This document shows, piece by piece, positions 8,916-53,413 of a stretch of DNA of 54,496 nt. Position 1 is the stretch's first letter. Every line of letters starts with the position of its first letter. The DNA is from Candidatus Woesebacteria bacterium RIFCSPLOWO2_01_FULL_39_23 (GTDB lineage: Bacteria > Patescibacteriota > Microgenomatia > UBA8517): NCBI GenBank assembly GCA_001793095.1, contig MGHG01000015.1:1-54496 (forward strand), written 5' to 3'. Under the pieces are notes generated by a model that saw only the letters and a program-made list of their open reading frames with translations, did no database searches and had not been told where the DNA came from. Position numbers and translations under genes: made by a program.

Positions 8916-9049
8916 GTATATTATACTCCATGAATGCTAATAATTCATTTTTTTGGTTCCTCGTCTCTGGACAATCACCAGCCGTTGATGCAATAATGGG
9001 AGAGTAAATCACCCACCCCATAAGGGGTAAGGGTAGTTTTTGCTTGCCC

Positions 9050-10729: not shown

Positions 10730-10732
10730 TAT

Positions 10733-11941: not shown

Positions 11942-11944
11942 CAG

Positions 11945-12640: not shown

Positions 12641-12648
12641 ATAAAACT

Positions 12649-14163: not shown

Positions 14164-14165
14164 AA

Positions 14166-14783: not shown

Positions 14784-14787
14784 ATTA

Positions 14788-16137: not shown

Positions 16138-16143
16138 AGCAAT

Positions 16144-16267
16144 TTCAAGGAAACCGTGGGCCCTTAGCCCACGGAGGAATTGACAACGTCAAACGTTGGT
16201 TATTCACTTGATATGTCATTCTCTTTCAAAAGTGAAACCGCGGACTCGCAGTCCACGGAGAGTGTCA
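16144..16267 (+). mobile_element. Miniature non-autonomous IS200/IS605-like element (PATE-like), copy 1
   Basis: TTCAAG-hairpin(CCGTGGGC..GCCCACGG)-GAATTGA ... GAAA-hairpin(CCGCGGAC..GTCCACGG)-AGAGTGTCA. Confidence 0.6.
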
Positions 16268-16333
16268 TAATATCCAGTATAACATTTCTGATTACAACTT
16301 AAGTTATTTTAGTTATAATAAAGGTGTCCTGCC

Positions 16334-17734: not shown

Positions 17735-17762
17735 TCCTTCGATAAAGTTTACGAATAATAAT

Positions 17763-18404
17763 ATGGATAAAAAACGAGAAAATACGCAGATAAAAGAAGA
17801 CAAGACAGAAGTAGCTAAAAATACCATGCTTAATGAAACTATGAAGCCGGAGAGGGCTAAGAAAATTTCAAAATCAAAAGGGAAATCTTTCCCTGTTTTT
17901 GCCTTCGTTGGTGTGCTTATTTTAGCTCTGATGACTTTAACGGTTATTATTTTGTCTTCATTAGACTCCAAGGCGCAGGAGCTGAAAAAACTTAGAAACG
18001 AAGCACTCGACGCTCAAGCTAGCTCGAGAGTTGAAAAGGAGGATTTGGATATAAAATCTATCCAGGAAAATGTCGAAAAAATCAACTCGCTTTTTCCCAA
18101 TGAAACAGGACTTGTTAATTTTGTAAGAGAAATAGAAAAAATGAAGGAAGGCGGAGTTGTTAAGGGAATTTCTTTTGTCAGTCAGGACGCAGTTCGGGAT
18201 AAGAATAAATATTTGGGCATACCATTTGTAATAGACATGGAAGGGAGTTGGGAAAGTATCGATTTGGCACTTCAAGGTATCGAAAAATTACCTTATTTGG
18301 TTCGGACAATTACAGTTGAAGCGAGGGTAAGTGAGGGAGGGGGTGTAAACTTTAAGTACGGAGGTTTTATTTATGTCGATGAAAGCCTTGCAAAAAATAG
18401 ATAA
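17763..18404 (+). CDS. PilO-like protein
   Basis: TM, coiled coil, LFP..GSW..L..IEKLP pattern; follows pilMN. Confidence 0.6.
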   Translation: MDKKRENTQIKEDKTEVAKNTMLNETMKPERAKKISKSKGKSFPVFAFVGVLILALMTLTVIILSSLDSKAQELKKLRNEALDAQASSRVEKEDLDIKSIQENVEKINSLFPNETGLVNFVREIEKMKEGGVVKGISFVSQDAVRDKNKYLGIPFVIDMEGSWESIDLALQGIEKLPYLVRTITVEARVSEGGGVNFKYGGFIYVDESLAKNR

Positions 18405-18609
18405 ATTTTATGTAGTTTTTATCCTGTCAATGGTCGTGATGGGGATATTTCTGATTTATACATTCAGGTCAATTTTTACGTCGGTAACGACCTCAGGGGA
18501 TGTGGAAACAAAGGTTACTGAAGCAGAGCTTCGCATTGATAGGGAGAAATTGGGGAATGTTCTAAAAAGTTATAATGAAAGAAAGATTGTTCCCCTCGAG
18601 ATAAGATGA
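18373..18609 (+). CDS. Small membrane protein of the pilus operon
   Basis: Single TM, overlaps the end of the pilO-like gene. Confidence 0.55.
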   Translation: MSMKALQKIDKFYVVFILSMVVMGIFLIYTFRSIFTSVTTSGDVETKVTEAELRIDREKLGNVLKSYNERKIVPLEIR

Positions 18610-18653
18610 TAAAGTTAATTGGTAGTAGGTAGAAAGTAGAATGAATTAAGGGT

Positions 18654-19136
18654 ATGCAAAATTCCAAATACATTATACATAATACAACATACCGGGCGTT
18701 TACATTTATCGAGATGCTTTTGGTAATGAGTATTATCGGGATTTTGGCAACTGTCATGGTTGTCGTTGTTAACCCTGCACACCAGCTTGCAAAAGCTAGG
18801 GATACGCAACGCGAAACCGATATATATTCAATAGTTGCTACCATTCAGCAATATGCAGCCGAACATGGCGGAACTTTCCCTGATACCGATGGTGATCCGG
18901 ACACCAGTAATTTCCCGACAACATTAACTTGTATCGGAACAGGTGGAGGTTGCTTCAACTTAGCGGGTGCTGGAGACGGAACAGATTCTATAGTGCCGAC
19001 TTATGTTGCATCTCTTCCGAAAGATCCGAAAATAGGAAGCACTGAGGATAGCGGTTACTTAATCATGGTTGATGCTAATAAGCATCTCACAGCCTCCGCT
19101 TCAGGCGAAACAAAAACAATAACCTTGACAAAATAA
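18654..19136 (+). CDS. Type IV pilin
   Basis: A|FTFIEMLLVMSIIGILA, ARDTQR, LPKDP. Confidence 0.9.
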   Translation: MQNSKYIIHNTTYRAFTFIEMLLVMSIIGILATVMVVVVNPAHQLAKARDTQRETDIYSIVATIQQYAAEHGGTFPDTDGDPDTSNFPTTLTCIGTGGGCFNLAGAGDGTDSIVPTYVASLPKDPKIGSTEDSGYLIMVDANKHLTASASGETKTITLTK

Positions 19137-19209: not shown

Positions 19210-21579
19210 ATGAAAACCGGTTGTACATTTAAACTCTTCTTATTTTTATTTTCATTCGGATTAATACTATTAAAATCATCAAGCCCTGCTGCAGCACAAT
19301 CCTGTACTGATAGCGACGGACTGGATCCTTTTCAAAAGGGTAGTGTTCAAACATCGAATGAAACTGTCAGCGATTATTGTATTGCTGATAACACGGTAGT
19401 TGAATTTTATTGTGACAATGTTACGCGAAGATCGCTTAATGCTGGCTGTGGGGCTGAAGTTGATACTACACTTTGTTTTAACGGCGAATGCTGTGGTTGG
19501 ACTAATGCACTGTGTACAGAGGACAGTGATTGTTGCGTAAATTTAACTTGTCAAAGTGGAGTGTGTCGTCCACCGGAGAATAATATTGTTCTTGTTGAAG
19601 CATATGGACGGAGTTGTTATTCCTATTGCCAAGGATTGGGTTTTTCGCATTGCGTGAGCGTAGGAACGGATCCCGAGGCTTCAAACGGAATGGTTTATCA
19701 CTACGGTTTCCAGCAAAATGCATGTGAATTGTATTCGGATTACCGCGCATCATGCAATACCGTACTTTATGATAATTTATATTCCTGCGGTGGTCGTGAA
19801 GCGGATTGGGCATATTGTAACTGCGGTGGTTCCATTCCTTTCCCGACACCAACATTAACACCGACACCGACTTTAACTCCCACTCCTTCTCCGATTCCTA
19901 CACCGCTTCCGACTATACTACCACCGCTTTCATTTCTCGACTTGCCTTGGGATTATGCAAGTAAGGGAAAAACCTTTAGTGAAGCTGCTTTAGCTATTAA
20001 CTCTTATTTCGATCACGAATATCCGTTATTAAGTACAATTTTAGTAGAATCCCCTGAATCGAGAGACAACTTGACTACTTTTAGAGGAGAGTTTAGGTCT
20101 GCGCTTAAATATTCTTCTCATGATGGTTATGATTACGGAAGCAAAGCCGGGACAAAAAAAGACGAACCTATACTTGCCCCATTTAGCGGTTACGCGATTT
20201 ATAAAAATGATTGTGGTGCGTGCGGTAATGCAATACTCATAGATCACGATAATCATTATCAAACCAGGTATTATCATTTGCAGAAAGAAGGTTTGGTGAC
20301 AAATAGTACTACTTCAGCTGTGTTTGTCAATAAAGGCCAACAACTAGGTAAAGTTGGCTATTCGGGCAATGTCTCTCCGGCCGGTGAGAAAGGGGCACAT
20401 CTGCATTTTATGATTATTGAAGATAAAAATCGTGATGGGAATTTTGAAGATAATATTCCTGACGGAATTACGGATCCCTTCGGCTGGCAAAGTGCAGAAA
20501 TTGATCCCTGGCCAATTTATAATTTTACGTATAAAGGAATACAACGGACGGGGAATTTCAGTAATTACCTTTTTATAAAACCCATCGCTAATTTATCAAA
20601 AGAATTTACTGCCAACGGTGGTTTTTTTGATCTTGAACATCTAAGTCTTACGTTTCCTGAAGGTGCCAGGGATAGTACTTACATTGTAGATGCAGCTTAT
20701 GCACCGATTGCTAGATACTCTACAGAAATAGAATCTATTGATGCAAACTTTTTAATTACAGCAAAAGATACTCTAGGTAATCTGATCTCAACTTTTTTTA
20801 AACCCTTTACAATTACAATTGATTTCAGTACAAGTATACTATCGAATTATAAAGCCGGAACATTTTCAATGTACTCAAGTGAGGATGGAGTAAGTTGGAA
20901 TAAAGAAAATACCGTAGTTGATATGACAACTAAAAAAGCAACAACTGAAGTGAATCATATGAGTTATTTTTCTTTAATGGCGGAGAGGATTGATACGACA
21001 CCCCCCATTACGGAAGCACTATTAATTGGAGAAAAAGGTGAGGATGGTTGGTATAGAAGCGATGTTAATCTGATATTACTTACTCAGGATGGAGAAGGTT
21101 TGGGGGTAGATTATACCTTGTACAGAATAGTAGATGATGATTGGGGTGAATATAAAGAACCAATAATATTTACAGAAGAGGGAGAATATAAAGTAGAATT
21201 TTATTCTGTTGATAAGGATGAGAATATTGAAGAAACAAGGCTGGTAGAATTTAATATAGATAAGACATTTCCAGCGCTTACTCTCTTAGTAGAACCGTTG
21301 ATACTTTGGCCGCCGGATGGAAAAACGATAGATATAAATATTTCAGGAAGTGTTATTGATAATTACTTTAAAAATGTAGTTTTTACAGTGGAAGATGAGT
21401 ATAATGAAATTGAGCCAATAATTGCCAACTTTGGTGATATTATAAAACTTGAAGCAAGCAGAAAGGGGAAAGATTTGGACGGCAGGAAGTATGAGATAAA
21501 GGTCGACGCATTCGATTTAGCCGGAAATTCGTCTGCATCGGGTGCAGCAGTATTAGTGCCGCATGATCAAAGTAACTAA
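19210..21579 (+). CDS. Secreted multidomain M23 metallopeptidase
   Basis: Signal peptide, Cys-rich N-terminus, PT linker, M23 motifs HDGYD, YYHL, VGYSG, HLHF, then C-terminal beta-sandwich-like domains. Confidence 0.8.
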   Translation: MKTGCTFKLFLFLFSFGLILLKSSSPAAAQSCTDSDGLDPFQKGSVQTSNETVSDYCIADNTVVEFYCDNVTRRSLNAGCGAEVDTTLCFNGECCGWTNALCTEDSDCCVNLTCQSGVCRPPENNIVLVEAYGRSCYSYCQGLGFSHCVSVGTDPEASNGMVYHYGFQQNACELYSDYRASCNTVLYDNLYSCGGREADWAYCNCGGSIPFPTPTLTPTPTLTPTPSPIPTPLPTILPPLSFLDLPWDYASKGKTFSEAALAINSYFDHEYPLLSTILVESPESRDNLTTFRGEFRSALKYSSHDGYDYGSKAGTKKDEPILAPFSGYAIYKNDCGACGNAILIDHDNHYQTRYYHLQKEGLVTNSTTSAVFVNKGQQLGKVGYSGNVSPAGEKGAHLHFMIIEDKNRDGNFEDNIPDGITDPFGWQSAEIDPWPIYNFTYKGIQRTGNFSNYLFIKPIANLSKEFTANGGFFDLEHLSLTFPEGARDSTYIVDAAYAPIARYSTEIESIDANFLITAKDTLGNLISTFFKPFTITIDFSTSILSNYKAGTFSMYSSEDGVSWNKENTVVDMTTKKATTEVNHMSYFSLMAERIDTTPPITEALLIGEKGEDGWYRSDVNLILLTQDGEGLGVDYTLYRIVDDDWGEYKEPIIFTEEGEYKVEFYSVDKDENIEETRLVEFNIDKTFPALTLLVEPLILWPPDGKTIDINISGSVIDNYFKNVVFTVEDEYNEIEPIIANFGDIIKLEASRKGKDLDGRKYEIKVDAFDLAGNSSASGAAVLVPHDQSN

Positions 21580-22084
21580 AAATAATAAATCTCTATTATT
21601 TGGTTTGGTAATCCTACTGTTAATAGTCGTTTGGGTTTACCTTACAAGAGCTAACAAACCAACGGTAAGTACAGTATTTACTACTAGTCCTACTCCTATT
21701 TCTACTAGTCAGAACCTGAAAACTTTTAAGTCATCAGAGATAATGGATTTTACAATTGAGACGCCACGAGATTACCAGGTGGTAGAAAAATATGGCTTAG
21801 CAACTTTAACGTCGTCGAAAGGTAAAATAATAATTTCCCAGAACGCAACAAACTACGACAATTTGTCTGATTTTTTAAAAGATAATCGAGGCACTTCATA
21901 TACTAATATAACTAATAAAAGATATTTAAATATAAATAATTTAGAAAGTGTTAGTGGTTTTATTGGTGAAGAGAAAATTTACTTCATTTATGTAGATTAT
22001 ACCGTTTATTTGATTAGCTCTAAAACAGGAGCTCTTTTCTCCGATCTTGATCAAATCGCCCAATCCTTCCGCTACACTCCGTAG
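21563..22084 (+). CDS. Hypothetical membrane-anchored protein (PsbP-like pattern)
   Basis: N-terminal TM, F.I..P..Y motif, ends DQIAQSFRY. Confidence 0.55.
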   Translation: MIKVTKNNKSLLFGLVILLLIVVWVYLTRANKPTVSTVFTTSPTPISTSQNLKTFKSSEIMDFTIETPRDYQVVEKYGLATLTSSKGKIIISQNATNYDNLSDFLKDNRGTSYTNITNKRYLNINNLESVSGFIGEEKIYFIYVDYTVYLISSKTGALFSDLDQIAQSFRYTP

Positions 22085-22132
22085 TGTAACTATCTTACAA
22101 AGATATAATTTAGTGGATGATTTTGTACTTTA

Positions 22133-22216
22133 CACTACATCACTACGTAGTGATGTAGTGAACATAAAAATATGAATCGGGAAGATAAAATCTACATCTC
22201 AACGTTGAGATGTAGA
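22133..22216. repeat. Two related perfect palindromes
   Basis: CACTACATCACTAC|GTAGTGATGTAGTG (22133-22160) and TCTACATCTCAAC|GTTGAGATGTAGA (22191-22216). Confidence 0.9.
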
Positions 22217-22375
22217 AAACTTTGAGATTGCAAGAAGTGATAAGGGTTTGGATGTAGGAGTATTTGATTTCGGTGGGGGTAAAAAGATATAATTCAATAC
22301 AGTAACAATTAAGCCCGAGAGAATGAACATTTTACCTTACGTAAACTTTAACCTTTACTAACTCCAATTCCGTCT

Positions 22376-23422
22376 ATGCTTCTTTTTAATAAAAAACACA
22401 TTAAAGAAATCGACGGACACAACTTAATAGCATACATAAGTGATAAAAAAGTTGGGCTTGAAGGGTATATTGCGATCCATAGAAAAAATTCCTCACATCC
22501 ATCTTTTGGTGCAACTCGTCTTTGGAACTATTCATTAAATGACGATGCAATAAAAGAGGCTCTCAGACTCTCGAGGGCGATGTCTTATAAATCAGCTCTG
22601 GCAGGTTTACCTTGCGGAGGAGGAAAAGCCGTTCTGATGTCTAAAAAAGATGCGTTCACTCATAGAAAAGAATATTTAAAATCTTATGCTAAAAAAGTAA
22701 ATTTGCTGGGTGGAAATTTTATAACCGGGTCGGACGTTGGGATAACCAGAGACGATGTGATGTTGATGAGAAAAGTAAGCCCGTATTTTGTCGGTGTAAA
22801 AACCAATCCGGAGAAATTTACTGCAATGGGCCTTTTATATGGATTGGAAACTTGCCTTTTAAGTGTTTTTGGTTCGGAAGATTTAGCCAATCGATCGTTT
22901 GCCATTCAAGGGGTAGGGAAGATTGGTACCGAATTTTTGAAACTGATTTATTCTAAGGCCAAGGAAATTTATGTTGCAGATATAGATACACTTAGAGTCG
23001 GGGAGATTAAAAAGATGTTTCCGGGCGTAATAGTAGTAACTCCACAGGAAATTCATAAAGTTGCGGTTGATATTTTTTCTCCTTGTGCATTAAGTAATTG
23101 TATCAACCATCGTAATGTTGCCGAGCTAAAGTGTAAGGCAATTGTGGGTGGAGCGAATAATCAGTTGGAAAATTCAAGTATAGGGAGTTTATTGCATAGA
23201 ATTGGAATAGTGTATGCGCCTGATTATGTTGTTAACGCGGGGGGACTAATTAGTGTTTACGATGAATATGAATACGGTAATACAAGAGTAAAAAGAGTTG
23301 AGGAGAGAATTCATAATATCAAAAAAACTTTGAAAAAGATATTAGACGAAAGCAAAAGGGAGAAAGTTCCTACAAATATTGTCGCCGACACAATGGCAAA
23401 AGAGATAATTGCGAGTTATTGA
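22376..23422 (+). CDS. Glu/Leu/Phe/Val dehydrogenase (leucine dehydrogenase-like)
   Basis: ALRLSRAMSYK, GGGKAV, DVG, IQGVGKIG, FSPCAL, GGANNQL, YAPDYVVNAGG. Confidence 0.92.
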   Translation: MLLFNKKHIKEIDGHNLIAYISDKKVGLEGYIAIHRKNSSHPSFGATRLWNYSLNDDAIKEALRLSRAMSYKSALAGLPCGGGKAVLMSKKDAFTHRKEYLKSYAKKVNLLGGNFITGSDVGITRDDVMLMRKVSPYFVGVKTNPEKFTAMGLLYGLETCLLSVFGSEDLANRSFAIQGVGKIGTEFLKLIYSKAKEIYVADIDTLRVGEIKKMFPGVIVVTPQEIHKVAVDIFSPCALSNCINHRNVAELKCKAIVGGANNQLENSSIGSLLHRIGIVYAPDYVVNAGGLISVYDEYEYGNTRVKRVEERIHNIKKTLKKILDESKREKVPTNIVADTMAKEIIASY

Positions 23423-23433
23423 TTTAATAATAA

Positions 23434-23895
23434 TTAATCGGATGGTGGAGGATAGTCAGGATATGCTTCAATTCTAGATATTATAGGTTCTGTTGCATTT
23501 GTAACAATAGTTTCAAAATAAAAGACTTGTCCAATTTTCAGATTAATAGGACCGCCCCTTAAAGATGTATAAGTATCCGTTAATACAAAAATAGACTTTT
23601 TGTTTAAATTCATATCACTGGCAGTTGGGGGCGTGTTTGCTTCATTTCCGACTACACGTATATTAAATCTAATGGAATCGACATCTTTAAAACCTATACC
23701 TAATCCTGTTAATACATTTCCTTTGCCTTCAAGTACATCAGGGAAATGTGGATCCTTAAATACGACATCATCACTTAAGATTTCTCCTAATGTATTAAAA
23801 TCTTTTAAAGATATTAAATCGAACGATTTAACAGCAATCTCTTCAGATGGTGTATATTTACGTTTCTCTCCTGAAATATCATTTTCCGTCGTCAT
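23434..23895 (-). CDS. SnoaL/NTF2-like protein
   Basis: LSDDVVFKDP..EG pattern and final ISRIEAY strand. Confidence 0.65.
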   Translation of the reverse strand: MTTENDISGEKRKYTPSEEIAVKSFDLISLKDFNTLGEILSDDVVFKDPHFPDVLEGKGNVLTGLGIGFKDVDSIRFNIRVVGNEANTPPTASDMNLNKKSIFVLTDTYTSLRGGPINLKIGQVFYFETIVTNATEPIISRIEAYPDYPPPSD

Positions 23896-23972
23896 GTCTA
23901 GTGAAGTATATGGTGGTTGATGGTATTTTACAAATAAATTGCTTCAGGATAAAATGAATATTACTTATATAA

Positions 23973-25136
23973 ATGAAAAAACGAGCTTTCACTTTTCTTT
24001 TTATAACTGTCTTTATAGATTTTTTATCTTTCGGTATAATTTTTCCTCTTCTTCCTTACTATGTTGAAAGTTTTGGCGCTTCAGCATTAACGATCGGACT
24101 TATTGCGGGCTCGTTTTCGTTTATGCAGTTTATTTTTTCACCCGTTTGGGGAAGAATTTCAGATAAAGTAGGACGGAAACCTATAATTTTAATCAGTTTG
24201 TTGGGGACGAGTATTTCACTTGTAGGTTTCGCTCTTGCCCCAAGTATTTTTTGGTTGTTTGCGACCCGAATATTAGCTGGGTTTTTTACAGCGGCATCTC
24301 TTCCGACAACGTATGCTTATGTGGCTGATTTAACCGCAGAAAAAGAGAGAGCAGAAAAATTCGGAATGTTGGGGGCTGCATGGGGATTAGGTTTTGTGTT
24401 CGGGCCTGCATTTGGCGGAATATTAAGCAAAATTTCTCCAGCTACACCTTTTTTTGTGGCTGCCGGAATTGCTTTTATTAATTTCTTATTAACGACAGTT
24501 TTTCTTCCGCAGTCAAAACCAAAGGAATCTCTAGAAATAGTTAGCAAAGGTCGTTTATTCGATTTAGCAAGAGTTACTAAACATTTGCAGGGTGACGTCG
24601 GGAATTTATTTATTATCTTTTTTATAGTTGCTTTTGCGCTGTCAGGTCTGGAAATAGTTTTTCCTCTTTTTGCAAAGGAAAAATTCAATTTTAACGAAAC
24701 TAATATCGGTTTTTTCTTTACATTAATTGGTGTTGTAGTAGGAGTTACTCAAGGAGTATTGGTCGGAAAGGCAGTAAAACGTTTTGGGGAGTTTAAAACT
24801 ATCACTATTGCACATGTTTGTATGATTGTAGGTTATTCTGCGTTAAGTCTGTCTCCAAACTTGGTTTTTTTAGTCTTATCCGCAATAATTCTGGCAGCCG
24901 GAATTGCACTCAACGAGCCTTCTCTTGCCGCATTAATCAGTCAAAGAAGTAAAGAGGCTCAAGGCACAACACTCGGAGCAACGTGGTCTTTTGATTCTTT
25001 GGCACGTATTATTGGACCTGCTTTTGCGGGGTTTTTATTCGGTAGTGTTTCTTCCCGAGCTCCCTTTTTCAGTAATTCGCTAATGTTAATATTTTCGATT
25101 TATGTTTTAAAGATTTATGCTTCAAAAGAAAGATAA
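23973..25136 (+). CDS. MFS efflux transporter (TetA-like DHA1)
   Basis: 12 TM; motif A WGRISDKVGRKP, motif C GFVFGPAFGG. Confidence 0.92.
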   Translation: MKKRAFTFLFITVFIDFLSFGIIFPLLPYYVESFGASALTIGLIAGSFSFMQFIFSPVWGRISDKVGRKPIILISLLGTSISLVGFALAPSIFWLFATRILAGFFTAASLPTTYAYVADLTAEKERAEKFGMLGAAWGLGFVFGPAFGGILSKISPATPFFVAAGIAFINFLLTTVFLPQSKPKESLEIVSKGRLFDLARVTKHLQGDVGNLFIIFFIVAFALSGLEIVFPLFAKEKFNFNETNIGFFFTLIGVVVGVTQGVLVGKAVKRFGEFKTITIAHVCMIVGYSALSLSPNLVFLVLSAIILAAGIALNEPSLAALISQRSKEAQGTTLGATWSFDSLARIIGPAFAGFLFGSVSSRAPFFSNSLMLIFSIYVLKIYASKER

Positions 25137-25140
25137 AAAG

Positions 25141-25926
25141 ATGATAGATTATAAAACCCTGTTCTCCAGAAATATAGGAATTTTAAAAGAAGAAGAACAG
25201 GAAAAAATAAAAAATACCAAGGTGGCAATTTTAGGATGCGGTGGTGGAAGTGAAATAGCTCGGCAAATGGTACAATCTGGTTTTGTAAGCCTTAAATTGG
25301 CAGACATGGATACGGTTGCACCGCATAATCTAAATCGACAATTTTACTTTCAGAAAGATATAGGTAAAAAGAAGACACACGCGCTTGATGAAAATTTACG
25401 TATGATAAATCCTAATATAACAACAGAGATTTTAGATCAAGGAGTTAATACTAATAACATAGAAGAGATTGTATATAAAAGTGATTTGATAATTGATGCA
25501 ATTCCTCAGGACACTGCTCTAAGAGAGGAAATGTTATTAGCTAGGGAAGTGAGAAAGAGTAATAATAAATATCTTTTATATTTTATGGATATTGTGTGGG
25601 GTGCAAAAGCTTTAATATTTTCAAAAACTAGTCAAACACTTGAGGAATTTTATGGTTTAGAACCAAATTGTGAACTTTATAAGCTCGATAAATTGAGTAT
25701 AGAAAAGCGTTTCAGTTCTTATTTGGAGAATGCATCGAGTGACATGATTCGAGTTGGGAACATGATGTATAAACGTGAACTAAATTATTACCCACAAATG
25801 GCTCTGACTGTTTCACTTGCCGGATCTGTTGTTGCAACAATGTGTATTTTTCTTATTATGGGAAAGAAAATACCTCTTGCACCTTTCATATATCACATCG
25901 ATTATTATAAAGATCTGGTTGAATAG
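25141..25926 (+). CDS. ThiF/E1-like adenylyltransferase
   Basis: FSRNIG, KVAILGCGGG, LADMDTV..HNLNRQ, DIGKKK, INP; no zinc CxxC pairs. Confidence 0.88.
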   Translation: MIDYKTLFSRNIGILKEEEQEKIKNTKVAILGCGGGSEIARQMVQSGFVSLKLADMDTVAPHNLNRQFYFQKDIGKKKTHALDENLRMINPNITTEILDQGVNTNNIEEIVYKSDLIIDAIPQDTALREEMLLAREVRKSNNKYLLYFMDIVWGAKALIFSKTSQTLEEFYGLEPNCELYKLDKLSIEKRFSSYLENASSDMIRVGNMMYKRELNYYPQMALTVSLAGSVVATMCIFLIMGKKIPLAPFIYHIDYYKDLVE

Positions 25927-25930
25927 GTAT

Positions 25931-27460
25931 ATGACTAACAGTTACATTACGCCCTCCGACTTCGAGAATCCCCGAAAGATATTAAAATGGTTACCTAAAC
26001 AAAGTGAAGAATATTGGCTTGAAGGCGTAAGAAATAACGCGTTTAAGGTTTTTGAGATATTAAGAGACAAAATTCCTTTTTATAAGGAATTTTTAAAGGA
26101 ACATGGTGTTGAAATCAATGATATAAAGAATTCCCAAGATATAGACATGCTTCCTGTCATGACTAAAGAAAATTATCTTAATAAATTTGGGTTGGAGGGA
26201 TTGTTGAATGGTAAAGTTGAAGATATAAAAAGTTTTTATATGAGTTCGGGATCCAGTGGTAAACCTGGTGTATGGCCCAGGCTTGAACAATCGAATTTAG
26301 CCTACGCTATTTTTGTTAATTTTTTCTACACTTTATATTGGGATATTGATGTTAAAAAAACATTATACATTTCCGCTATGGATTTGGGGATTTGGGCATC
26401 TGGAAATTTACAATTCCATGCTGCAACATACTGTGCTCATAGACATAGGTTTACTTTCGCTAATTCGGGGGCTGACTTTAGTTTCATTTATCATATTTTG
26501 AAAGAACTGGGTTCCTATTATGATCAGGTTATTATTGCTACTTATCCTTCATGGGCAAGACGAGTTTTAGATTATTTGCTAGACAAAAAGGATATAGATC
26601 TTAAAAAATTGAATATCAAGCTTATGTTAGGCGGAGAACCACATACGATAGAGTGGAGACAATTTATATTAAAAAAAATCGGTCATTCTGAAGATGGATT
26701 AACTGATGTGATGGATTATTATGGCACTAGTGATTCTGGTGGCCCCGGATCGAGCACTCTATTAAGTACGTTAATTCAAAACTTATGCGAAAAGGATAAT
26801 TTATTGTGTAATGATTTATTTGGACAGCCAATAGTTCCCTCATTGTTTCAGCAAAATCCCACCCTTTACGTAGAAGCCGTAAACGGAAATATTGTTATTA
26901 CATATCCCGGCCAGTTACCGCTATGTCGATATGATAGTGGGGATACTGGTGGAGTAATAAAGTTTTCAGAAGTTATAAAGAAACTTGAAAAACACGACTA
27001 CGACATAAATGGACTTATGTCTAAATATGGTTATAAAAACTTTATATGGAAATGGCCATTTGTATATTTAACTGGAAGGTATGACTTAGCGATAAATATT
27101 GGCGGGGCTATTGTCTATCCCAAAGATATAGAGGGATTATTTTTTGGAGATGAAACTAAAGAAATAAATAGCTTTAAACTTGCCGTTGAGTCAGGTGAAG
27201 ATCAAAAATATAGTTTTAAAGTTTATCTAGAGTTAAAACATAATATTATACTTTCTTCCAGTGAAAGGGAAAAATTGATAGAGAAGTATACGAAAATTAT
27301 ATTAAATAAACTAGTTGAATCCAATTTGGATTATGCTGCAGCCTATGATATGGATAAAGACTTAAGTAAGCCGGATGTTAATATTTGTAACTATCGAGAA
27401 CCACCTTTTGAGAGCGAAGAAATTAGACAAAAACCCCTTTTTGTTAAAAAATATAATTAA
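25931..27460 (+). CDS. Phenylacetate-CoA ligase-like (PaaK family) AMP-dependent ligase
   Basis: LPVMTK, SSGSSGKP P-loop, GGEP, YGTSD, RYDSGD, GR.D..INIGGAIVYP.DIE. Confidence 0.85.
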   Translation: MTNSYITPSDFENPRKILKWLPKQSEEYWLEGVRNNAFKVFEILRDKIPFYKEFLKEHGVEINDIKNSQDIDMLPVMTKENYLNKFGLEGLLNGKVEDIKSFYMSSGSSGKPGVWPRLEQSNLAYAIFVNFFYTLYWDIDVKKTLYISAMDLGIWASGNLQFHAATYCAHRHRFTFANSGADFSFIYHILKELGSYYDQVIIATYPSWARRVLDYLLDKKDIDLKKLNIKLMLGGEPHTIEWRQFILKKIGHSEDGLTDVMDYYGTSDSGGPGSSTLLSTLIQNLCEKDNLLCNDLFGQPIVPSLFQQNPTLYVEAVNGNIVITYPGQLPLCRYDSGDTGGVIKFSEVIKKLEKHDYDINGLMSKYGYKNFIWKWPFVYLTGRYDLAINIGGAIVYPKDIEGLFFGDETKEINSFKLAVESGEDQKYSFKVYLELKHNIILSSSEREKLIEKYTKIILNKLVESNLDYAAAYDMDKDLSKPDVNICNYREPPFESEEIRQKPLFVKKYN

Positions 27461-28105
27461 TCAACTTCTGGTAAACCTAGCAGTATAGAAGAAAAACCAG
27501 CCTTGAATATTTTGTTTAATAAATCCAGCTTTCTCGCAGAGTTTTACTGTTGCTGACTTAAATGCAAAGTCAGGATCCATAAAATATTCAGTTATTGCTA
27601 GTATTCCATTTGGTTTCAACACTCTCTTAATTTCAATTAACGCTTTAAGTGAGTTAGGAATTTCTTGAAGTACATCTATTAAATAGACTAAATCAAACGT
27701 ATTTGGTTTAAAAGGTAGTTTAGATGCATTGGCTTTTACAATTTTTATATTATTTAGGTTGTGAAATTCTTCTTTCTGTAATTTAGCTTTTAATTGAGCT
27801 AGCATTTCGTCTTGTAAATCTACAGCATATACTAAACCATTTTTACCTACGGCGCGGGCGGTATCTGTAGTATATGCACCGCTTCCGCAACCCAAATCTA
27901 ATACGGTCATTCCCTTAGTAATGCCCGATCTTTTCAAAATTAGCTCAGTTGGCTGTAATTTTTTTCTTAACCTGCTATCAAAAAACGGTCCGCCTTTTGG
28001 AGACGCTGGGACGGGATTTTTATGACGTTCCTGTCGAAATTTAAGCTCTTTGTAAAGTAATTTTGTTGCTATCGTGGCAAAAATAATTATTAGAACAATG
28101 TACAT
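27461..28105 (-). CDS. Class I SAM-dependent methyltransferase with N-terminal TM
   Basis: VLDLGCGSG, VYAVD, LPF..FDLV, RVLKPNG. Confidence 0.9.
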   Translation of the reverse strand: MYIVLIIIFATIATKLLYKELKFRQERHKNPVPASPKGGPFFDSRLRKKLQPTELILKRSGITKGMTVLDLGCGSGAYTTDTARAVGKNGLVYAVDLQDEMLAQLKAKLQKEEFHNLNNIKIVKANASKLPFKPNTFDLVYLIDVLQEIPNSLKALIEIKRVLKPNGILAITEYFMDPDFAFKSATVKLCEKAGFIKQNIQGWFFFYTARFTRS

Positions 28106-28263
28106 ACTATTGTTTAAAAGTATTCTAACATACTTATGGGGTCAATAAATAACTAACGAAAGTTATGTTTTTGTGGTGCAAAAGGAATAAAAAGAATGAA
28201 TTTTGTTTCAAATTATCAAAACACCTTCTTTTATTTCTGTAAAACATGTATTATTTATATTAA

Positions 28264-29877
28264 ATGAACATTGTTAATAACATATTACTAAATGCAATTA
28301 TAGTAATTTTGATAACAGTAAGCTCATTTTATTTAGGTTTACTTGCCTACAGGGAAAATAGAAAATCCTCTTCAAACCGAATCTTTGCACGTTTCGCTAT
28401 AGCTACAGCATTATGGATCTTATTAGCTTTTATTCCTGATGTACCATACTTCCGGGGTATCGCGTTGATTAGCGCTAAACTAAATTATTTAGCTTTATTA
28501 GTAGTAGGTTTCACATTAATTGAGCTTCCATTCTATTTTCCTCACGAACGTAGAATAAACCCCTATTTAAAATATCCTATTTTAGGAATTGCAGTGATTT
28601 TAGGAATTCTTACCTTGTTTACAGATAAAGTAATTGCGGGATTAAGTTTTTTTGAGTGGGGTACAAGCTATGTTGATGGTGAGTTCGCAGGTCCTATTTA
28701 TCTTTATATGATGTTGGCGCCAATAATTTCATTTATTCAATATGTGTTTCTTTGGAAAAAAATCGATCAACAGGATAAAAGAAGGGTGAAGTTATTTCTA
28801 ATGGGACTTTTTATATTTATGGCTGTAAATATTATTGCTCAATCGATAGTTGAACCTCTTATTACTCATACTGATGAGTTTTATAAAATTGGGAATTACT
28901 CTGCGATCTTTATGATAGTCTTGACGAGTTATGCAATTGTTAAATACGAGTTGTTTAATATTAAGGTACTTGCAACTGAAATAATTACAGTAGCTCTTTG
29001 GGTAATATTATTTTCCAAGATTCTTGTATCAACTTCTCTTACTGAGACGATAGTTAATAGTTCTATCTTCATTCTCGTTCTAGTTTTTGGGATTTTACTA
29101 GTCCGCAGTGTTATGAATGAAGTTAGGCAACGAGAAAAGTTGGCGGAGCTTAACGAGAAATTAAAAGCCTTGGATAAGCAAAAGGATGAATTTATTTCGA
29201 TGGCTGCCCACGAGCTTAGATCCCCTCTTACCGCAATCAAGGGTTATGTCTCGATGATTATTGAAGGAGATACTGGCGATATTCCTGAAAAAGCACGAGA
29301 ATTTTTAGCTGATGCTCAAGCTGTTACTGACCGCTTGGTCAGACTCGTTAATAATATGTTGAATGTCAGTAGGATCGAAGAGGGACGACTTGTTTATCAG
29401 CTTGAGACAACTTCTCTTATCAGAGCAGTTCAGGAAATTTATTTTGCATTCAGAGTTGAGGCTGAAAGAAAAGGCTTAAAAATTACTATGGATATTCCGG
29501 ATGGTATCAAGGATCAGGTGTATGTCGATCCCGACAGAGTCCGCGAAGTAATTAGTAATCTCGTTAGTAATGCCATAAAGTTTACCGTAAAGGGTTCGGT
29601 CACGATCAAGATGCGCAATCCCACTCCCGGTACGGTAAAAGTAGAAGTAATTGATACCGGTCCTGGCATTTCGACGGAAGAACAGGTAAAGCTTTTCCAG
29701 AAATTTTATAGAGCGGAGTCAACGGCAGGTAAAACTTTCGGAACAGGGCTGGGTCTTTATATTACAAGACTTTTAATTGAGAAATTCGGTGGTAAAATTG
29801 GAGTAGAATCGCAAGTAGATCGCGGAAGCAATTTCTGGTTTGAGCTTCCGGTATCAAAAGGTGCTACAATTAAATAA
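28264..29877 (+). CDS. Sensor histidine kinase with multi-TM (HisKA_7TM-like) input domain
   Basis: Multi-TM N-terminus; H-box AAHELRSPL, N-box NLVSNAIKF, DTGPGI, GTGLGL. Confidence 0.92.
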   Translation: MNIVNNILLNAIIVILITVSSFYLGLLAYRENRKSSSNRIFARFAIATALWILLAFIPDVPYFRGIALISAKLNYLALLVVGFTLIELPFYFPHERRINPYLKYPILGIAVILGILTLFTDKVIAGLSFFEWGTSYVDGEFAGPIYLYMMLAPIISFIQYVFLWKKIDQQDKRRVKLFLMGLFIFMAVNIIAQSIVEPLITHTDEFYKIGNYSAIFMIVLTSYAIVKYELFNIKVLATEIITVALWVILFSKILVSTSLTETIVNSSIFILVLVFGILLVRSVMNEVRQREKLAELNEKLKALDKQKDEFISMAAHELRSPLTAIKGYVSMIIEGDTGDIPEKAREFLADAQAVTDRLVRLVNNMLNVSRIEEGRLVYQLETTSLIRAVQEIYFAFRVEAERKGLKITMDIPDGIKDQVYVDPDRVREVISNLVSNAIKFTVKGSVTIKMRNPTPGTVKVEVIDTGPGISTEEQVKLFQKFYRAESTAGKTFGTGLGLYITRLLIEKFGGKIGVESQVDRGSNFWFELPVSKGATIK

Positions 29878-29881
29878 TACT

Positions 29882-30259
29882 ATGGCTGAGGAGGGTAAAA
29901 AGAAGGTATTAATTATTGAAGACGACCCGTTCCTCCTAAAAATATATCAGGAGAAATTTACGGGTGAGGGTTTTGATGTAGTAACTGCTGAGGATGGTGT
30001 AGAAGGATTGAGGTTGGCAAAGGAGGGTAATCTTAATATTGTAATTTTGGACATTTTAATTCCCAAACTTTCCGGGGTTGATCTACTTCTTAAACTGCGG
30101 GAAGATGATAAAGGAAAGACTCTTCCGGTAATTGCTCTTACTAATCTTACCCAACCGGAGGAGCAACAAAAAGTAATGACTTTGGGCGTTAAGGAATACC
30201 TTGTTAAAAGCGACTATACTCCGAACCAAGTTGTCGAAAAAATCAGAAAGTATATCTGA
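29882..30259 (+). CDS. Single-domain response regulator
   Basis: IIEDD, ILDILIP, LTN, YLVK. Confidence 0.92.
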   Translation: MAEEGKKKVLIIEDDPFLLKIYQEKFTGEGFDVVTAEDGVEGLRLAKEGNLNIVILDILIPKLSGVDLLLKLREDDKGKTLPVIALTNLTQPEEQQKVMTLGVKEYLVKSDYTPNQVVEKIRKYI

Positions 30260-30261
30260 CC

Positions 30262-30870
30262 TTACCCCCTAGGCCGCGTGAGAACGAATACTAATCCGAG
30301 TATTGCTATCAGTGCGAGGCCTGACGCGAGTCCGGCTCTTTTAAGTCCCAGAAGAAGTCGGTCTTTAGCCGAAGATTTTGGAGTTGGGGTTTCTTCCGGT
30401 GTCGTAGTTTCTTCATCACCACCCGACGTCGGAGCAGGAGAACCGGGTTTTTCCAAGAAAGTAATCGGTTTGATAGAACCTTTCATGACGACATTCCCGG
30501 CTGGAGCTTTGGTGTTGGGATTTTCTTCAGTTGTAACAAAGAGAGAGGTAAAAGCAGGTTTAACATCAAATTGAGCTTTCCCCAATCCTAACGCTCCAAC
30601 TTTTACTGGGGCGCTGGCATCCGCCGGATTTGCCCAAAGAATATATGAGAAGATTGTGTTATCAACCGGGTATAGTATGTCACGGCAGGACACGGTTACT
30701 TTATAAACTAAATTTTGCATTTGGAGAGATGCAGCAAAACATCTGTAAGTGTTGTCGTTTGTACTTCTGAGTTCAAATGTTCCCTCTGATGCAAAAGCAC
30801 TACCTTTTGAGATTAAAAATAGACCACTTGCAAGAATTAATGATGTTACTAAAATAGTTCTTTTTTTCAT
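30262..30870 (-). CDS. Hypothetical surface protein (signal peptide, C-terminal TM)
   Basis: AFA signal cleavage site, P/T/E linker, C-terminal hydrophobic helix plus RPRG. Confidence 0.65.
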   Translation of the reverse strand: MKKRTILVTSLILASGLFLISKGSAFASEGTFELRSTNDNTYRCFAASLQMQNLVYKVTVSCRDILYPVDNTIFSYILWANPADASAPVKVGALGLGKAQFDVKPAFTSLFVTTEENPNTKAPAGNVVMKGSIKPITFLEKPGSPAPTSGGDEETTTPEETPTPKSSAKDRLLLGLKRAGLASGLALIAILGLVFVLTRPRG

Positions 30871-30959
30871 GCAACTTAGGTAATTATATACTTATTCTCT
30901 TTTGCTTTGCAATTTGAATGATTGAAAAGAGGGTATATCTGATTTAATATGAATCTAGC

Positions 30960-31418
30960 ATGAATGGGCAAAATTCTACCACCAACCAGAAACAAAATCC
31001 GGTTCAGGCAGCCCCTGCCCCGAATATCGGCTCGGAAAACATTAGCCTGCCGGTTATTCTTCTCGTCGAAGACGATCCGGTTCTTTCGAAGATGTATACC
31101 GAAAAATTTAAATTTGAGGGCTTCAGTGTCCTGACTGCTGCGAATGGTGAAGACGGACTACACGTTGCATTAACCCAAAAAGTTGACTTGATACTACTTG
31201 ACTTGATGCTTCCGAGACTTTCCGGGACCGAACTATTAGCAAGACTGCGTGAAGATCCGAAAGGTAAGGGAGTAGTTGTCGTGGCTTTAACAAATCTTGC
31301 TGAGGAAGAGGAAAAACAGAAAGCAATTCAACTCGGAGTTAAGGAATATTTAATCAAAGCCATGCAAACACCCGAGGAAGTAGTCAAAAAGGTCAAGGGT
31401 TATATAGGAAAGTCTTAA
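30960..31418 (+). CDS. Single-domain response regulator
   Basis: LVEDD, LLDLMLP, LTN, YLIK; paralogue of 29882. Confidence 0.92.
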   Translation: MNGQNSTTNQKQNPVQAAPAPNIGSENISLPVILLVEDDPVLSKMYTEKFKFEGFSVLTAANGEDGLHVALTQKVDLILLDLMLPRLSGTELLARLREDPKGKGVVVVALTNLAEEEEKQKAIQLGVKEYLIKAMQTPEEVVKKVKGYIGKS

Positions 31419-33076
31419 TATAGCTTTTCTACGTATTCTTCGAACATTCTTTTTGCAGAAAATGCTTTGGCAGTATCAATTGATTTTTTCATCCTTTCAA
31501 TCCAGAGTTTTGGGAGACCTTCGGCGTTTCTGTCGTAATATAGTGGCGCGATTTCGTTCTCAAGGAGTTTATAGAAGTCATCGGCCACGTTATCTGGACT
31601 CATAACCCAACCAATTCCGTCCCAATTAACTTCATACGTCCATCCGTCAAGTACCGTACAATTGAGCACACCATTGCCGATAGCCTTCATCCCCGAAGTT
31701 CCGCATGCTTCTAAATTGCCTTTCGGGGTATTTAGCCAGATATCTGACCCGCTCGTCAGATGATTGGCGAGAGATACATTATAATTCGGAATGAAAATAG
31801 CGTGCCCCGATAGGTCAGTTGAAAAAATTTTAATTATTTCTTCAATAATAGATTTTGCGTGAGGGTCGGCAGAATGGGAGTTACCAGCAAAAAGGAGTTG
31901 TATCGGTTTATCGGTAGTCGAAAGAATGTTTTTTAATCTTGCAATATCGGAAAATATAGCTTTCGGTTGTTTATATTCTGCCAGTCTTCTTGCCCAGGTA
32001 ATAACTAAGTGATTCGGGTCATAACCGAAACCTGTTCTTTGAATAACAGTTTCGACAAGCTCTCTTTTTTTAAGCATATGGAGATGCCATAAATCTTCAT
32101 CGCTGATGTTAATCTCTCTGTAATCGCTGTCCTGCCAGCGCTCACTACTTACGCCATTTGTTATGTATGTCCAGGTATAGTTCGGGTAAGCTTCCTTGCA
32201 ATATTTTTCGTGGATTTTGCTGACGGCGGTATGTTTACTGGAAATGTTCAGTGCAAATTGTGTAATAGCGAAAGTATTAGCATCTTGTGCTCCGTCTCTA
32301 ATAAGAAGGTCAGTGTCGACTCCTGCTTCCTTTGCAAACGCTTGACCCCACCACTGAAGAGTTCCAAGGGGATAAGTTAGATTACCCGCGGCGACGAGTG
32401 TGTGATTGGTGTAAACTATTTTTTTGACTGCTTTTTTCCAACCTTCATTGAAACTAACCCTCTCGGCAACAGAGATATTTTTGGCGATTTCCCAAATGAT
32501 AAAACCGGGACGGCCCTCATTGATATGATAAATTCTTGGAGTTATTCCGAGCTTTTCCAGTAGTTTAACTCCCCCAACCCCTAAAAGTATTTGCTGACGG
32601 ATTTGACTACCGGTATCTCCATGGTACAGGGCATCCATATCCGATATCCATTCCGGCGGATTACCGTCGACGTCGGTTGATAAGAAAAAAAGAATTGCGG
32701 TGTCCGAGAGTCTGATGTGGTAAGACTTGAATTTTATTTCTCCCGTCGGAGATGGAAGAGTTAGAATTAAGGGTTTACCGGCTTCAGTTGTTGGTCTAAG
32801 AAACGATGCATCATGATCAAATTCCGAATCCCGCTTTTCTTCTCTGGCATCGGCCGTAATGTGCTGATTAAACTCTTTGCCTTTATAAAGAATTCCCACT
32901 CCGACGAAGGGGTAATGAGCCGTTGCGGCAGCATTGATAAGATCAGATGACAGAACACCTAAACCTCCGGAGTAGGTAGGAAGATCATTATCTATTGCAA
33001 ATTCACTGCAAAAAAATGCGACAGGATTTTTTATTTCAGGCAGTTTCACTTTATTAAATGTAGCATTCAACAACAT
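31415..33076 (-). CDS. glgP: Alpha-glucan (glycogen/maltodextrin) phosphorylase
   Basis: YSGGLGVL, HINEG, TNHT, ITNGV, ARRLAEYK, PLP motif EACGTSGMKA. Confidence 0.9.
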   Translation of the reverse strand: MLLNATFNKVKLPEIKNPVAFFCSEFAIDNDLPTYSGGLGVLSSDLINAAATAHYPFVGVGILYKGKEFNQHITADAREEKRDSEFDHDASFLRPTTEAGKPLILTLPSPTGEIKFKSYHIRLSDTAILFFLSTDVDGNPPEWISDMDALYHGDTGSQIRQQILLGVGGVKLLEKLGITPRIYHINEGRPGFIIWEIAKNISVAERVSFNEGWKKAVKKIVYTNHTLVAAGNLTYPLGTLQWWGQAFAKEAGVDTDLLIRDGAQDANTFAITQFALNISSKHTAVSKIHEKYCKEAYPNYTWTYITNGVSSERWQDSDYREINISDEDLWHLHMLKKRELVETVIQRTGFGYDPNHLVITWARRLAEYKQPKAIFSDIARLKNILSTTDKPIQLLFAGNSHSADPHAKSIIEEIIKIFSTDLSGHAIFIPNYNVSLANHLTSGSDIWLNTPKGNLEACGTSGMKAIGNGVLNCTVLDGWTYEVNWDGIGWVMSPDNVADDFYKLLENEIAPLYYDRNAEGLPKLWIERMKKSIDTAKAFSAKRMFEEYVEKLY

Positions 33077-37232: not shown

Positions 37233-37415
37233 TTACCACGTAAGATACCAGAGTGCGGTTCCCGCTCCCCAGACAATAAAACCCATACCGGCGAGGGGTT
37301 TATTGAAGAAAAATAAAATAATAAGACCTACTAAAATAATAATGTGTATCATAAATCTTCTTAAGAACCTGTTTACTTTGTAGCTGTTAAAAAAGTTCGT
37401 TTGATTATAATCCAT
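37233..37415 (-). CDS. Small hypothetical membrane protein
   Basis: 60-aa ORF with two hydrophobic stretches. Confidence 0.4.
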   Translation of the reverse strand: MDYNQTNFFNSYKVNRFLRRFMIHIIILVGLIILFFFNKPLAGMGFIVWGAGTALWYLTW

Positions 37416-37506
37416 GATTATTTATGGTAACACAAATTTTCAAGGAAATTTTTTGTTTTATGCTAAATTTTGTTTCATCTGTACATTTAAATTTATTATA
37501 GGAACA

Positions 37507-37598
37507 TTCAAGAATGCCCCGCTAAGCGGGGATGAATTGAACGTTCATATGTCATCCTCCTTTAGAGGAGTACCCGAGTTTGACTCGGGAGGATGTCA
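37507..37598 (+). mobile_element. Miniature non-autonomous IS200/IS605-like element (PATE-like), copy 2
   Basis: TTCAAG-hairpin(CCCCGCTAAGCGGGG)-ATGAATTGA ... hairpin(CCCGAGTTTGACTCGGG)-AGGATGTCA. Confidence 0.6.
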
Positions 37599-37617
37599 TG
37601 GGTACAATCGAGTTATC

Positions 37618-53378: not shown

Positions 53379-53413
53379 AACAAACTAAATGATATGCACG
53401 TTGACGTCCCAAG
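53379..53413 (+). other. attR junction (P arm, core TGCAC, B' arm)
   Basis: AACAAAC-TA-AATGATATG-CA-CGTTGACGTCCCAAG. Confidence 0.85.

Follow-up and report, generated by a model that had tools for sequence, protein, structure and literature searches.

What do a ThiF-type adenylating enzyme, an adenylate-forming ligase of the PaaK fold and a multi-pass membrane histidine kinase do side by side in a genome-reduced groundwater bacterium? The question is raised by a locus in Candidatus Woesebacteria bacterium RIFCSPLOWO2_01_FULL_39_23 (assembly GCA_001793095.1; genome size 1.13 Mb, completeness 99%), lying on contig MGHG01000015.1, of which positions 1 to 54,496 (in nucleotides, nt) are termed here the window; the genes of the locus are mapped in Table 1. 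An earlier note, made from the letters of the window, had read positions 22376..30259 as a cassette in which two adenylating enzymes condense an amino-acid-derived acid into an exported signal, sensed by the neighbouring kinase. The gene observation is confirmed and the interpretation partly supported: one functional cassette that includes the kinase is supported, whereas the generic two-adenylase condensation is replaced by a chemistry that is probably of the N-acyl-amino-acid/oxazolone type.

Conservation of a ligase-ThiF-kinase cassette in Patescibacteria

A survey of gene context within the phylum supports the conclusion that the cassette is conserved in Patescibacteria and coupled to a 7TM sensor kinase of its own. 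In an even sample of the phylum (401 genomes) the ligase is encoded in 43; the earlier note had seen in the cassette an unexpected feature of a reduced lineage, but with its ligase in about a tenth of the sample the cassette is no peculiarity of this one genome. Nearer to the window, the ligase is found in five of the 24 other genomes of the same family and, at strong E-values, in none of 16 further relatives. We compared 42 ligase loci: that of the window, those of four relatives within its family, and a further 37 that 36 genomes of the phylum sample supplied. Six ligase-positive genomes with short or partial contigs were left out. Open reading frames (ORFs) were taken from a simple longest-ORF caller of our own; neighbours within five genes on either side of the ligase were clustered and scored with hidden Markov models (HMMs) built from the same loci, cluster representatives only being checked against Pfam and NCBIfam. 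The counts include related genomes, which are not independent.

Within this span ThiF accompanies the ligase in 35 of the 42 loci and a HisKA_7TM-type kinase (HK7TM) in 34; a nitroreductase-type flavoenzyme is present in 24, a receiver in 18, an ELFV dehydrogenase in 12, a methyltransferase in eight, and an aromatic amino-acid ammonia-lyase and a divergent Rossmann-fold protein in five each. The ammonia-lyase resembles the tyrosine ammonia-lyase FlxA (9.5e-186), and three loci carry a divergent class I/II aminotransferase. All 34 kinase-bearing loci, which represent 24 GTDB families, have the kinase downstream of the ligase and on its strand; it follows directly on a core gene in 25 of them, where the median gap is 22 nt and several of the genes overlap by 4 nt. 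The order of the enzymes varies (ligase-kinase, ligase-ThiF-kinase, ligase-ThiF-flavoenzyme-kinase, ThiF-ligase-kinase and others) and the kinase always comes last. These figures answer the synteny test that the earlier note had set beforehand for ThiF, PaaK-like ligase and HisKA_7TM kinase. In the six genomes left out, too, coordinates place an HK7TM match downstream of the ligase, with contig and strand the same. A different architecture is seen at one ligase locus (L048, in genome G248), where genes for a radical-SAM/SPASM protein and a methyltransferase come before the ligase and one for a 922-amino-acid (aa) protein comes after it, with no ThiF or kinase within five genes and a kinase match about 6 kb downstream by coordinates.

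The synteny counts argue that this arrangement is not due to chance. The window genome encodes seven HisKA kinases, only one of them an HK7TM, and from this we estimate a chance adjacency of about 1% per genome; a chance neighbourhood was rejected on the synteny counts. The enzymes are also joined in natural fusions: ligase with ThiF in an 863-aa protein (P0057), ThiF with ligase in one of 880 aa (P0135), and ELFV dehydrogenase with ligase and ThiF in one of 1242 aa (P0148), whose source is named Patescibacteria group bacterium at NCBI. Because ThiF and kinase co-occur with the ligase and because such fusions exist, we treat the genes, kinase included, as one functional cassette.

The ligase itself (509 aa) has no Pfam match, AMP-binding included. 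It matches the NCBIfam PaaK models at 8e-14 over its N-terminal half only, with 51.1 and 47.6 bits set against equivalog cut-offs of 700 and 646, and PDB entry 4r1l at 9e-7. Its AlphaFold model (predicted local distance difference test score, pLDDT, 93.6) is matched by Foldseek to PaaK1 and BT_0428 (template modelling, TM, score by target 0.77-0.78), and also to ClxA, AjiA1 and NatL2 of the benzoxazole pathway, at E-values against PaaK-family structures of 1.6e-21 to 2.7e-15. With all of these it shares its fold; it differs from the PaaK family in being about 80 residues longer, in its lack of a Pfam AMP-binding match and in its gene context. In an alignment of 46 members S106, G107 and G110 of a glycine-rich segment, together with D338, R383 and K501, are invariant or nearly so; we take these to be the ANL motif positions, and ClxA, NatL2 and AjiA1 to be condensing ligases that work independently of coenzyme A (CoA). 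An exhaustive search for the family turned up 1135 representatives at E<=1e-3, with 299 still found at E<=1e-30; their length is mostly about 500 aa. A contig scan with a single ligase query gave as its sole match a spurious 46 residues on an Alteromonas contig. Outside the survey, a 588-aa relative of the ligase (P0169; 31% identity, 2.9e-47) has the NCBI source name Nanoarchaeota archaeon, and the Atlas holds clusters of ligase look-alikes of about 500 aa in Actinomycetota and Cyanobacteriota.

Candidate chemistry: N-acyl amino acids and oxazolones

The common ThiF of these loci is long (about 350-415 aa) and matches the NCBIfam Rv1355c family over model positions 4-357 of 722 (4e-74 to 2e-86, 250-291 bits); the adjacent flavoenzyme, of about 350 aa, aligns to that model at positions 366-647 and also matches the Acg family (1e-48 to 1e-56). 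Rv1355c is TrzS, described as a protein whose ThiF domain cyclises N-acyl tryptophan with ATP; desaturation of the cyclised product by the flavin-oxidase domain follows and gives an N-acyl tryptazolone, and the acyltransferase TrzA is the source of the N-acyl tryptophan (PMC12856293). TyzA, TyzB and TyzC are reported as a split equivalent (PMC10404671) and OxzA with OxzB as the proteobacterial one (bioRxiv 10.1101/2020.06.11.147165; review PMC12596934); according to the same ThiF review, OxzB is the only known ThiF-like enzyme to have a small molecule as its substrate (PMC12596934). Since ThiF and flavoenzyme match the two halves of Rv1355c, most relatives appear to encode a split TrzS-like oxazolone synthase, with cyclase and oxidase divided as in TyzB and TyzC. 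By this homology to TrzS, TyzBC and OxzB, the system is probably of the N-acyl-amino-acid/oxazolone type.

The known pathways, OxzAB of Pseudoalteromonas rubra, TyzACB, and TrzAS of Mycobacterium tuberculosis and its relatives, have in common a ThiF-like ATP-dependent cyclase and a nitroreductase-superfamily flavin oxidase that act on an N-acyl aromatic amino acid. Pairs of a FeeM-like acyltransferase with ThiF, a further point of likeness, occur in Patescibacteria as well. The cassette described here differs in its first step, which would be taken by an ATP-dependent ligase of the PaaK fold where the others use an acyl-CoA-dependent GNAT; in its operon, which ends in a HisKA_7TM kinase; and in its lineage, OxzB being recorded from proteobacteria (56 proteins) and TrzS mainly from Actinomycetota (PMC12856293). 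The window variant departs further, having a short ThiF, no flavoenzyme and no adjacent FeeM-like GNAT.

Loci with ligase, ThiF and flavoenzyme lack the usual acyltransferase, and the distribution of FeeM-type N-acyl-amino-acid synthases bears on what the ligase might do. FeeM (PF21926) is found in nine of the 401 genomes. In eight of the nine loci it is directly followed by an HK7TM on the same strand, while the ninth breaks off within a ThiF gene; five of the nine have ThiF next to FeeM. No locus holds both FeeM and the ligase (FeeM in none of the 42 ligase loci, ligase in none of the nine FeeM loci), and one genome, G061, has both a ligase-kinase locus (L054) and a ThiF-FeeM-kinase locus (L104), each with its own HK7TM. 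This pattern suggests two unrelated enzymes serving the same step, and on that ground we read the ligase as a putative N-acyl-amino-acid-forming enzyme.

We also inspected 20 kinase loci from genomes without the ligase; these are the best-scoring kinase matches, not a random sample. Upstream of the kinase, ThiF is detected by HMM in eight (L079, L080, L085, L086, L088, L090, L093, L097) and confirmed by Pfam at E<=1e-5 in six, Pfam being silent for L079 and L080. Two have a nitroreductase-type flavoenzyme beside ThiF, L079 by HMM only and L085 by Pfam as well. The protein of L080 that the ThiF HMM matches has 725 aa and no match to the nitroreductase model, and from its length we would guess at a ThiF-flavoenzyme fusion. 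FeeM-type synthases lie upstream of the kinase in three of the 20 loci, a short ThiF with a methyltransferase in three (L088, L090, L093), and an AMP-binding ligase with a methyltransferase in one.

The window ThiF belongs with these short forms. It falls in a clade of nine ThiFs of 258-283 aa (SH-aLRT 100), four from loci with the ligase and five from loci without it, and none of the nine has a flavoenzyme at its locus; a methyltransferase recurs with them. Their alignment keeps the nucleotide-binding residues (G40/G42/G44, D63, N71, R74, K86 and D127). Apart from one sub-threshold match, the window ThiF is the only one of its genome. The nearest solved structure is the stand-alone ThiF AclA of Tenacibaculum discolor (about 264 aa; PDB 9egb/9egc), which matches over the full length (phmmer 6e-15; Foldseek 3.1e-17, TM 0.79/0.84); the identity is 23%, and no function is transferred from it.

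A candidate signal and its proposed sensor, with the alternatives

The window kinase has about seven to nine hydrophobic segments in residues 1-280, and its N-terminus gives no match to Pfam HisKA_7TM (PF16927) at E<=0.01. The sensor domains nevertheless align as one family, 31 of the 34 aligned members matching PF16927, and a profile built without the window kinase and its nearest relative scores the window kinase at 1.6e-47. The multi-pass kinase with its receiver, as the earlier note had called it, thus stands, with the 7TM label applying to the window kinase at the level of the family only. HK7TM kinases of about 700 aa carry a GAF domain, which the window kinase lacks. We know of no ligand for the HisKA_7TM domain.

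The pathway that we propose would begin with conversion of a hydrophobic or aromatic amino acid to its 2-oxo acid by the dehydrogenase, whose place in relatives would be taken by the tyrosine-ammonia-lyase-like enzyme or the aminotransferase; because one of the three is encoded alongside, the acyl donors are likely to be deaminated amino acids. To our knowledge Patescibacteria lack fatty-acid synthesis. The ligase would then adenylate the acid and couple it to an amino acid at the amine; an N-acyl amino acid would result, as it does from FeeM, OxzA or TyzA in the known systems. ThiF would adenylate the free carboxylate, leading to a 5(4H)-oxazolone or to transfer to another nucleophile, and in most relatives the nitroreductase-type flavin oxidase would desaturate the product, as in TrzS, TyzBC and OxzB. 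Finally, the HisKA_7TM kinase would bind the hydrophobic product in its membrane domain and phosphorylate the receiver-only regulators, closing an autoinducer-like loop. For the window, where the ThiF is short and a methyltransferase and a transporter of the major facilitator superfamily (MFS) stand in place of the flavoenzyme, our best guess is that the cell exports an end product which is either a saturated oxazolone or an N-acyl amino acid trapped by methylation or in some other way. The reading is built on gene identities, folds, fusions, synteny and phyletic pattern, from which we infer the chemical steps, the export and the sensing; taken whole, from N-acyl amino acid through ThiF activation or cyclisation to a sensing kinase, we hold it tentatively, with slightly less than even confidence.

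Its arrangement has precedents. LuxM/LuxN and CqsA/CqsS are quorum-sensing pairs of a synthase and a membrane kinase, and the present loci resemble them, by gene arrangement, in that a synthase gene adjoins a multi-pass membrane histidine kinase. For genomes of the candidate phyla radiation (CPR), Bernard et al. (2020) list homologues of LuxI (18), CqsA (51) and PpyS (3) that adjoin putative sensory kinases (PMC7567580); the main text of that paper has no occurrence of 'ThiF', 'N-acyl' or 'histidine kinase', and does not describe the ligase/ThiF/flavoenzyme module or the link to oxazolones. What is already known, as these sources present it, is thus the oxazolone pathways (PMC12856293) and the CPR adjacencies of synthase homologues and kinases (PMC7567580). 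We found no description in the literature of a PaaK-fold ligase and ThiF, with or without a flavoenzyme, joined to HisKA_7TM kinases across Patescibacteria.

Several observations weigh against the signal-and-sensor reading. Eight of the 42 ligase loci have no HK7TM within five genes; for two of these (L066, L069) the contig is short, at 9.3 and 5.8 kb, and for a third (L068) it ends two genes past the ligase. HK7TM is commoner than the ligase, at 187 against 43 of the 401 genomes, and though present in 41 of the 43 ligase-positive genomes it is found also in 146 of the 358 ligase-negative ones (among close relatives, in all five ligase-positive genomes and in six of 35 others). A UbiA prenyltransferase lies directly upstream of the kinase in five of the 20 ligase-less loci, and probably in two more, so the kinase family is not tied to this chemistry alone and may pair with several kinds of hydrophobic-metabolite genes. 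Within the window's family the kinase keeps its chromosomal slot where the upstream cassette differs or is missing, and in the window itself the convergent methyltransferase separates kinase from ligase, so that the kinase is not on the ligase transcript. On the chemical side, the reading supposes that the ligase forms an amide instead of a CoA thioester; the window ThiF reaches only 2.9e-13 and 49 bits against the Rv1355c model, whose cut-off is 476; and model searches of the window genome found no Acg-family flavoenzyme and no FeeM, which makes oxazolone formation least certain for the window locus. The counts, lastly, depend on our own ORF caller and on HMMs from the loci being counted, with Pfam and NCBIfam checks on representatives.

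Some of these points would be expected if the product were an amino-acid-derived metabolite of another kind (antimicrobial, lipid-like and protecting the membrane under stress, or directed at a host bacterium) and the kinase regulated the cassette on a cue other than the product. What bacterial N-acyl oxazolones do physiologically is termed 'a major unresolved question' in PMC12856293, where stress and antimicrobial roles are discussed and signalling is only speculated upon. A purely regulatory kinase would fit its presence in so many ligase-negative genomes and beside UbiA prenyltransferases, and also the way in which kinase, 202-aa protein and receiver hold their slot in the window's family. 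It fits less well with a kinase that is the last gene of the operon in most loci, at a median gap of 22 nt, that in eight of nine FeeM loci pairs with an unrelated synthase, and that in G061 is present once for each of two synthase types. A synthase gene followed by a kinase gene is the architecture typical of cognate synthase-receptor pairs; this operon architecture, the two unrelated synthase types and the one kinase per synthase in G061 favour a cognate pair, and we consider the regulation-only account rather unlikely.

The product might instead remain in the cell that makes it, as a ligand, cofactor or chromophore of the 7TM or 7TM-GAF kinase, which would then be a redox or light sensor encoded with the genes for its prosthetic group. 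A lyase and a ligase together make the chromophore of photoactive yellow protein, and a tyrosine-ammonia-lyase-like gene is paired with the ligase in five of the 42 loci; the GAF domain of the kinases of about 700 aa, and an exporter gene in only two of the 42 loci, would also suit such a role. Tyrazolones are reported to absorb at 360 nm and the TrzS product strongly at 400 nm (PMC12856293). Against this stand the MFS efflux gene inside the operon of the window and of its closest relative, the lack of a GAF domain in the window kinase and the lack of any pointer to covalent attachment of a ligand, and we regard the idea as improbable.

Very improbable, in our judgement, is that the substrate of ThiF and ligase is a peptide made by the ribosome or a protein of the ubiquitin type, in a peptide-modifying or conjugation system. 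Clusters for RiPPs (peptides made on the ribosome and modified after translation) that combine a ThiF-like enzyme with MFS transporters, a histidine kinase and a response regulator in one locus are described from lactic acid bacteria, with quorum sensing proposed (PMC11256085), and the tandem of MFS and ThiF genes in the window recalls them. Their enzymes act on a co-encoded precursor peptide, whereas here, among 162 small ORFs in the 42 loci, none ends in GG and none is conserved between loci, in a scan that precursors of fewer than 20 aa would escape. The ubiquitin-like carrier ThiS (PF02597) has no match in the window genome and does match in 12 of 14 control genomes. A small-molecule substrate is favoured by these two results. 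The short ThiF moreover starts about 13 residues before its ThiF domain, leaving no room for a peptide-recognition domain, and the long ThiFs have an N-terminal extension that lines up with the Rv1355c/TrzS model at its N-terminus. A thiocarboxylate (sulfur-transfer) pathway was set aside in the same way, there being no carrier of the ThiS/MoaD type.

Ordinary catabolism or salvage, in which a deaminated acid is turned into a CoA thioester for energy or resynthesis beside an unrelated ThiF and kinase, has in its favour the JGI label 'phenylacetate-CoA ligase' on relatives of the ligase, the confirmed PaaK fold and the putative acyl-CoA ligase BT_0428 among the nearest structures, and is hardly credible given 47-51 bits against PaaK equivalog cut-offs of 646-700, the ligase-ThiF fusions and the conserved operon with ThiF, flavoenzyme and kinase.

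If the signal-and-sensor reading is true, it would give oxazolone-type metabolites a candidate receptor and physiological role, and an orphan sensor domain a class of ligand. The occurrence of oxazolone-type genes and HisKA_7TM in one operon, across 24 families or more of a phylum whose members are tiny, offers a concrete candidate for a synthase-receptor pair, and would add a new first-step enzyme, an ATP-dependent ligase replacing the acyl-CoA transferase. A wider claim, that N-acyl-amino-acid or oxazolone molecules are widespread and unrecognised cell-cell signals of Patescibacteria, with HisKA_7TM kinases as receptors and acyl groups supplied from deaminated amino acids by a dedicated amide-forming PaaK-fold ligase, we put forward as a possibility, and a doubtful one; if it held, bacterial oxazolones would have their first receptor and their first physiological role. 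Cultivated Patescibacteria are all described as obligate episymbionts; confirmation would mean that genome-reduced bacteria retain and diversify a dedicated signalling system.

Gene map and surroundings of the cassette

Gene families of the window ORFs were assigned with Pfam and NCBIfam (Table 1). All the ORFs that the earlier note listed are present where it placed them, and no other paa genes appear among the ORFs of the window, as it had said.

Table 1. Genes of the cassette and its immediate neighbours, in window coordinates.
Position	Strand	Feature	Evidence
22376..23422	+	ELFV-family (Leu/Trp-type) amino-acid dehydrogenase	PF00208 1.6e-19, PF02812 1.2e-12
23434..23895	-	153-aa ORF, weak SnoaL/NTF2-like similarity	SnoaL_2 E 0.0019
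23973..25136	+	DHA1-type MFS efflux transporter, candidate exporter	MFS_1 3e-66
25117..25926	+	Short stand-alone 269-aa ThiF/E1-like adenylating enzyme	PF00899 1.4e-31
25931..27460	+	509-aa PaaK-fold ANL adenylate-forming ligase	Predicted fold, weak NCBIfam PaaK match
27461..28105	-	Class I S-adenosylmethionine (SAM) methyltransferase, convergent with ligase	Methyltransf_31/11/25, 1e-22 to 1e-25
28264..29877	+	HisKA_7TM-family sensor histidine kinase, proposed receptor	HisKA 4.8e-17, HATPase_c 4.6e-29
29840..30259	+	Receiver-only response regulator, overlaps end of kinase gene	Response_reg 2.3e-21
30262..30870	-	202-aa conserved protein without assigned family	No Pfam/NCBIfam match
30960..31418	+	Second receiver-only response regulator	Response_reg 8.4e-23

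The dehydrogenase, the proposed source of the 2-oxo acid, has as its nearest solved chains a tryptophan dehydrogenase (5b37, 6.3e-69) and a leucine dehydrogenase (3vpx, 3.1e-68), about equally close, and matches the NCBIfam tryptophan dehydrogenase ScyB at 8.9e-85, below the cut-off. The following 153-aa ORF was called SnoaL-like in the earlier note, a call that did not hold up: the SnoaL_2 score is 19.2 bits against a cut-off of 27, TIGR02096 gives E 0.029, and the ORF has no cluster partner in any of the 41 other ligase loci, being unique to the window and so probably outside the conserved system. The transporter is present as described (NCBIfam Tet-family model 4e-68, below cut-off) and, as a member of the cassette, is common only to the window and its closest relative G010 (56% identity), where dehydrogenase, MFS, ThiF, ligase and kinase genes follow in that order on one strand. 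Of the 4-nt gaps claimed for this operon, the one between ThiF and ligase stands, the likely ligase start being ATG 25931, 4 nt past the ThiF stop, and not the TTG at 25817 with which the listed ORF opens; that between MFS and ThiF requires translation of ThiF to begin at the second ATG (25141), the start at 25117 giving a 20-nt overlap. A promoter and terminator scan of positions 22000-31500 did no better than shuffled sequence (42 promoter-like sites against 32.3+-5.1; 6 terminator-like against 6.1).

In the window's family (f1) the 202-aa protein accompanies kinase and receivers at each of the five loci that carry the ligase; it does so in G001 and G002 as well, and may be part of the signalling unit. 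In these last two genomes a UbiA-kinase pair occupies the chromosomal slot that the cassette has in the window; UbiA-kinase loci (L081-L084, L091, L094, L095) often include a polyprenyl synthetase.

Directly upstream of the cassette, at 9044-19136, genes for a type IV pilus are clustered (a PilB-like ATPase, a PilC-like platform, N_methyl-motif pilins and PilM/N/O), a flank that is syntenic in four relatives of the window's family; pili are a conceivable output for a kinase with receiver-only regulators. Between pilin gene and dehydrogenase (19210-22084) lie genes for a 789-aa protein with an M23 peptidase domain and a 173-aa protein of unknown kind, for neither of which BLASTP found a match in the four family relatives. 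Positions 7432-8418 encode a transporter of the AI-2E family (PF01594, 5.7e-56). On the other side, a full Mg-chelatase/ComM-like gene (578 aa) at 37414-39150 is echoed by a second comM copy, a 132-aa fragment at 53394-53792 with 65% identity to the ComM of relatives; the stretch between the two (about 39.2-53.4 kb) encodes a tyrosine integrase, a large serine recombinase, a LexA-like repressor, a SMODS/AGS_C nucleotide cyclase and small enzymes, and looks like a mobile island integrated in comM.

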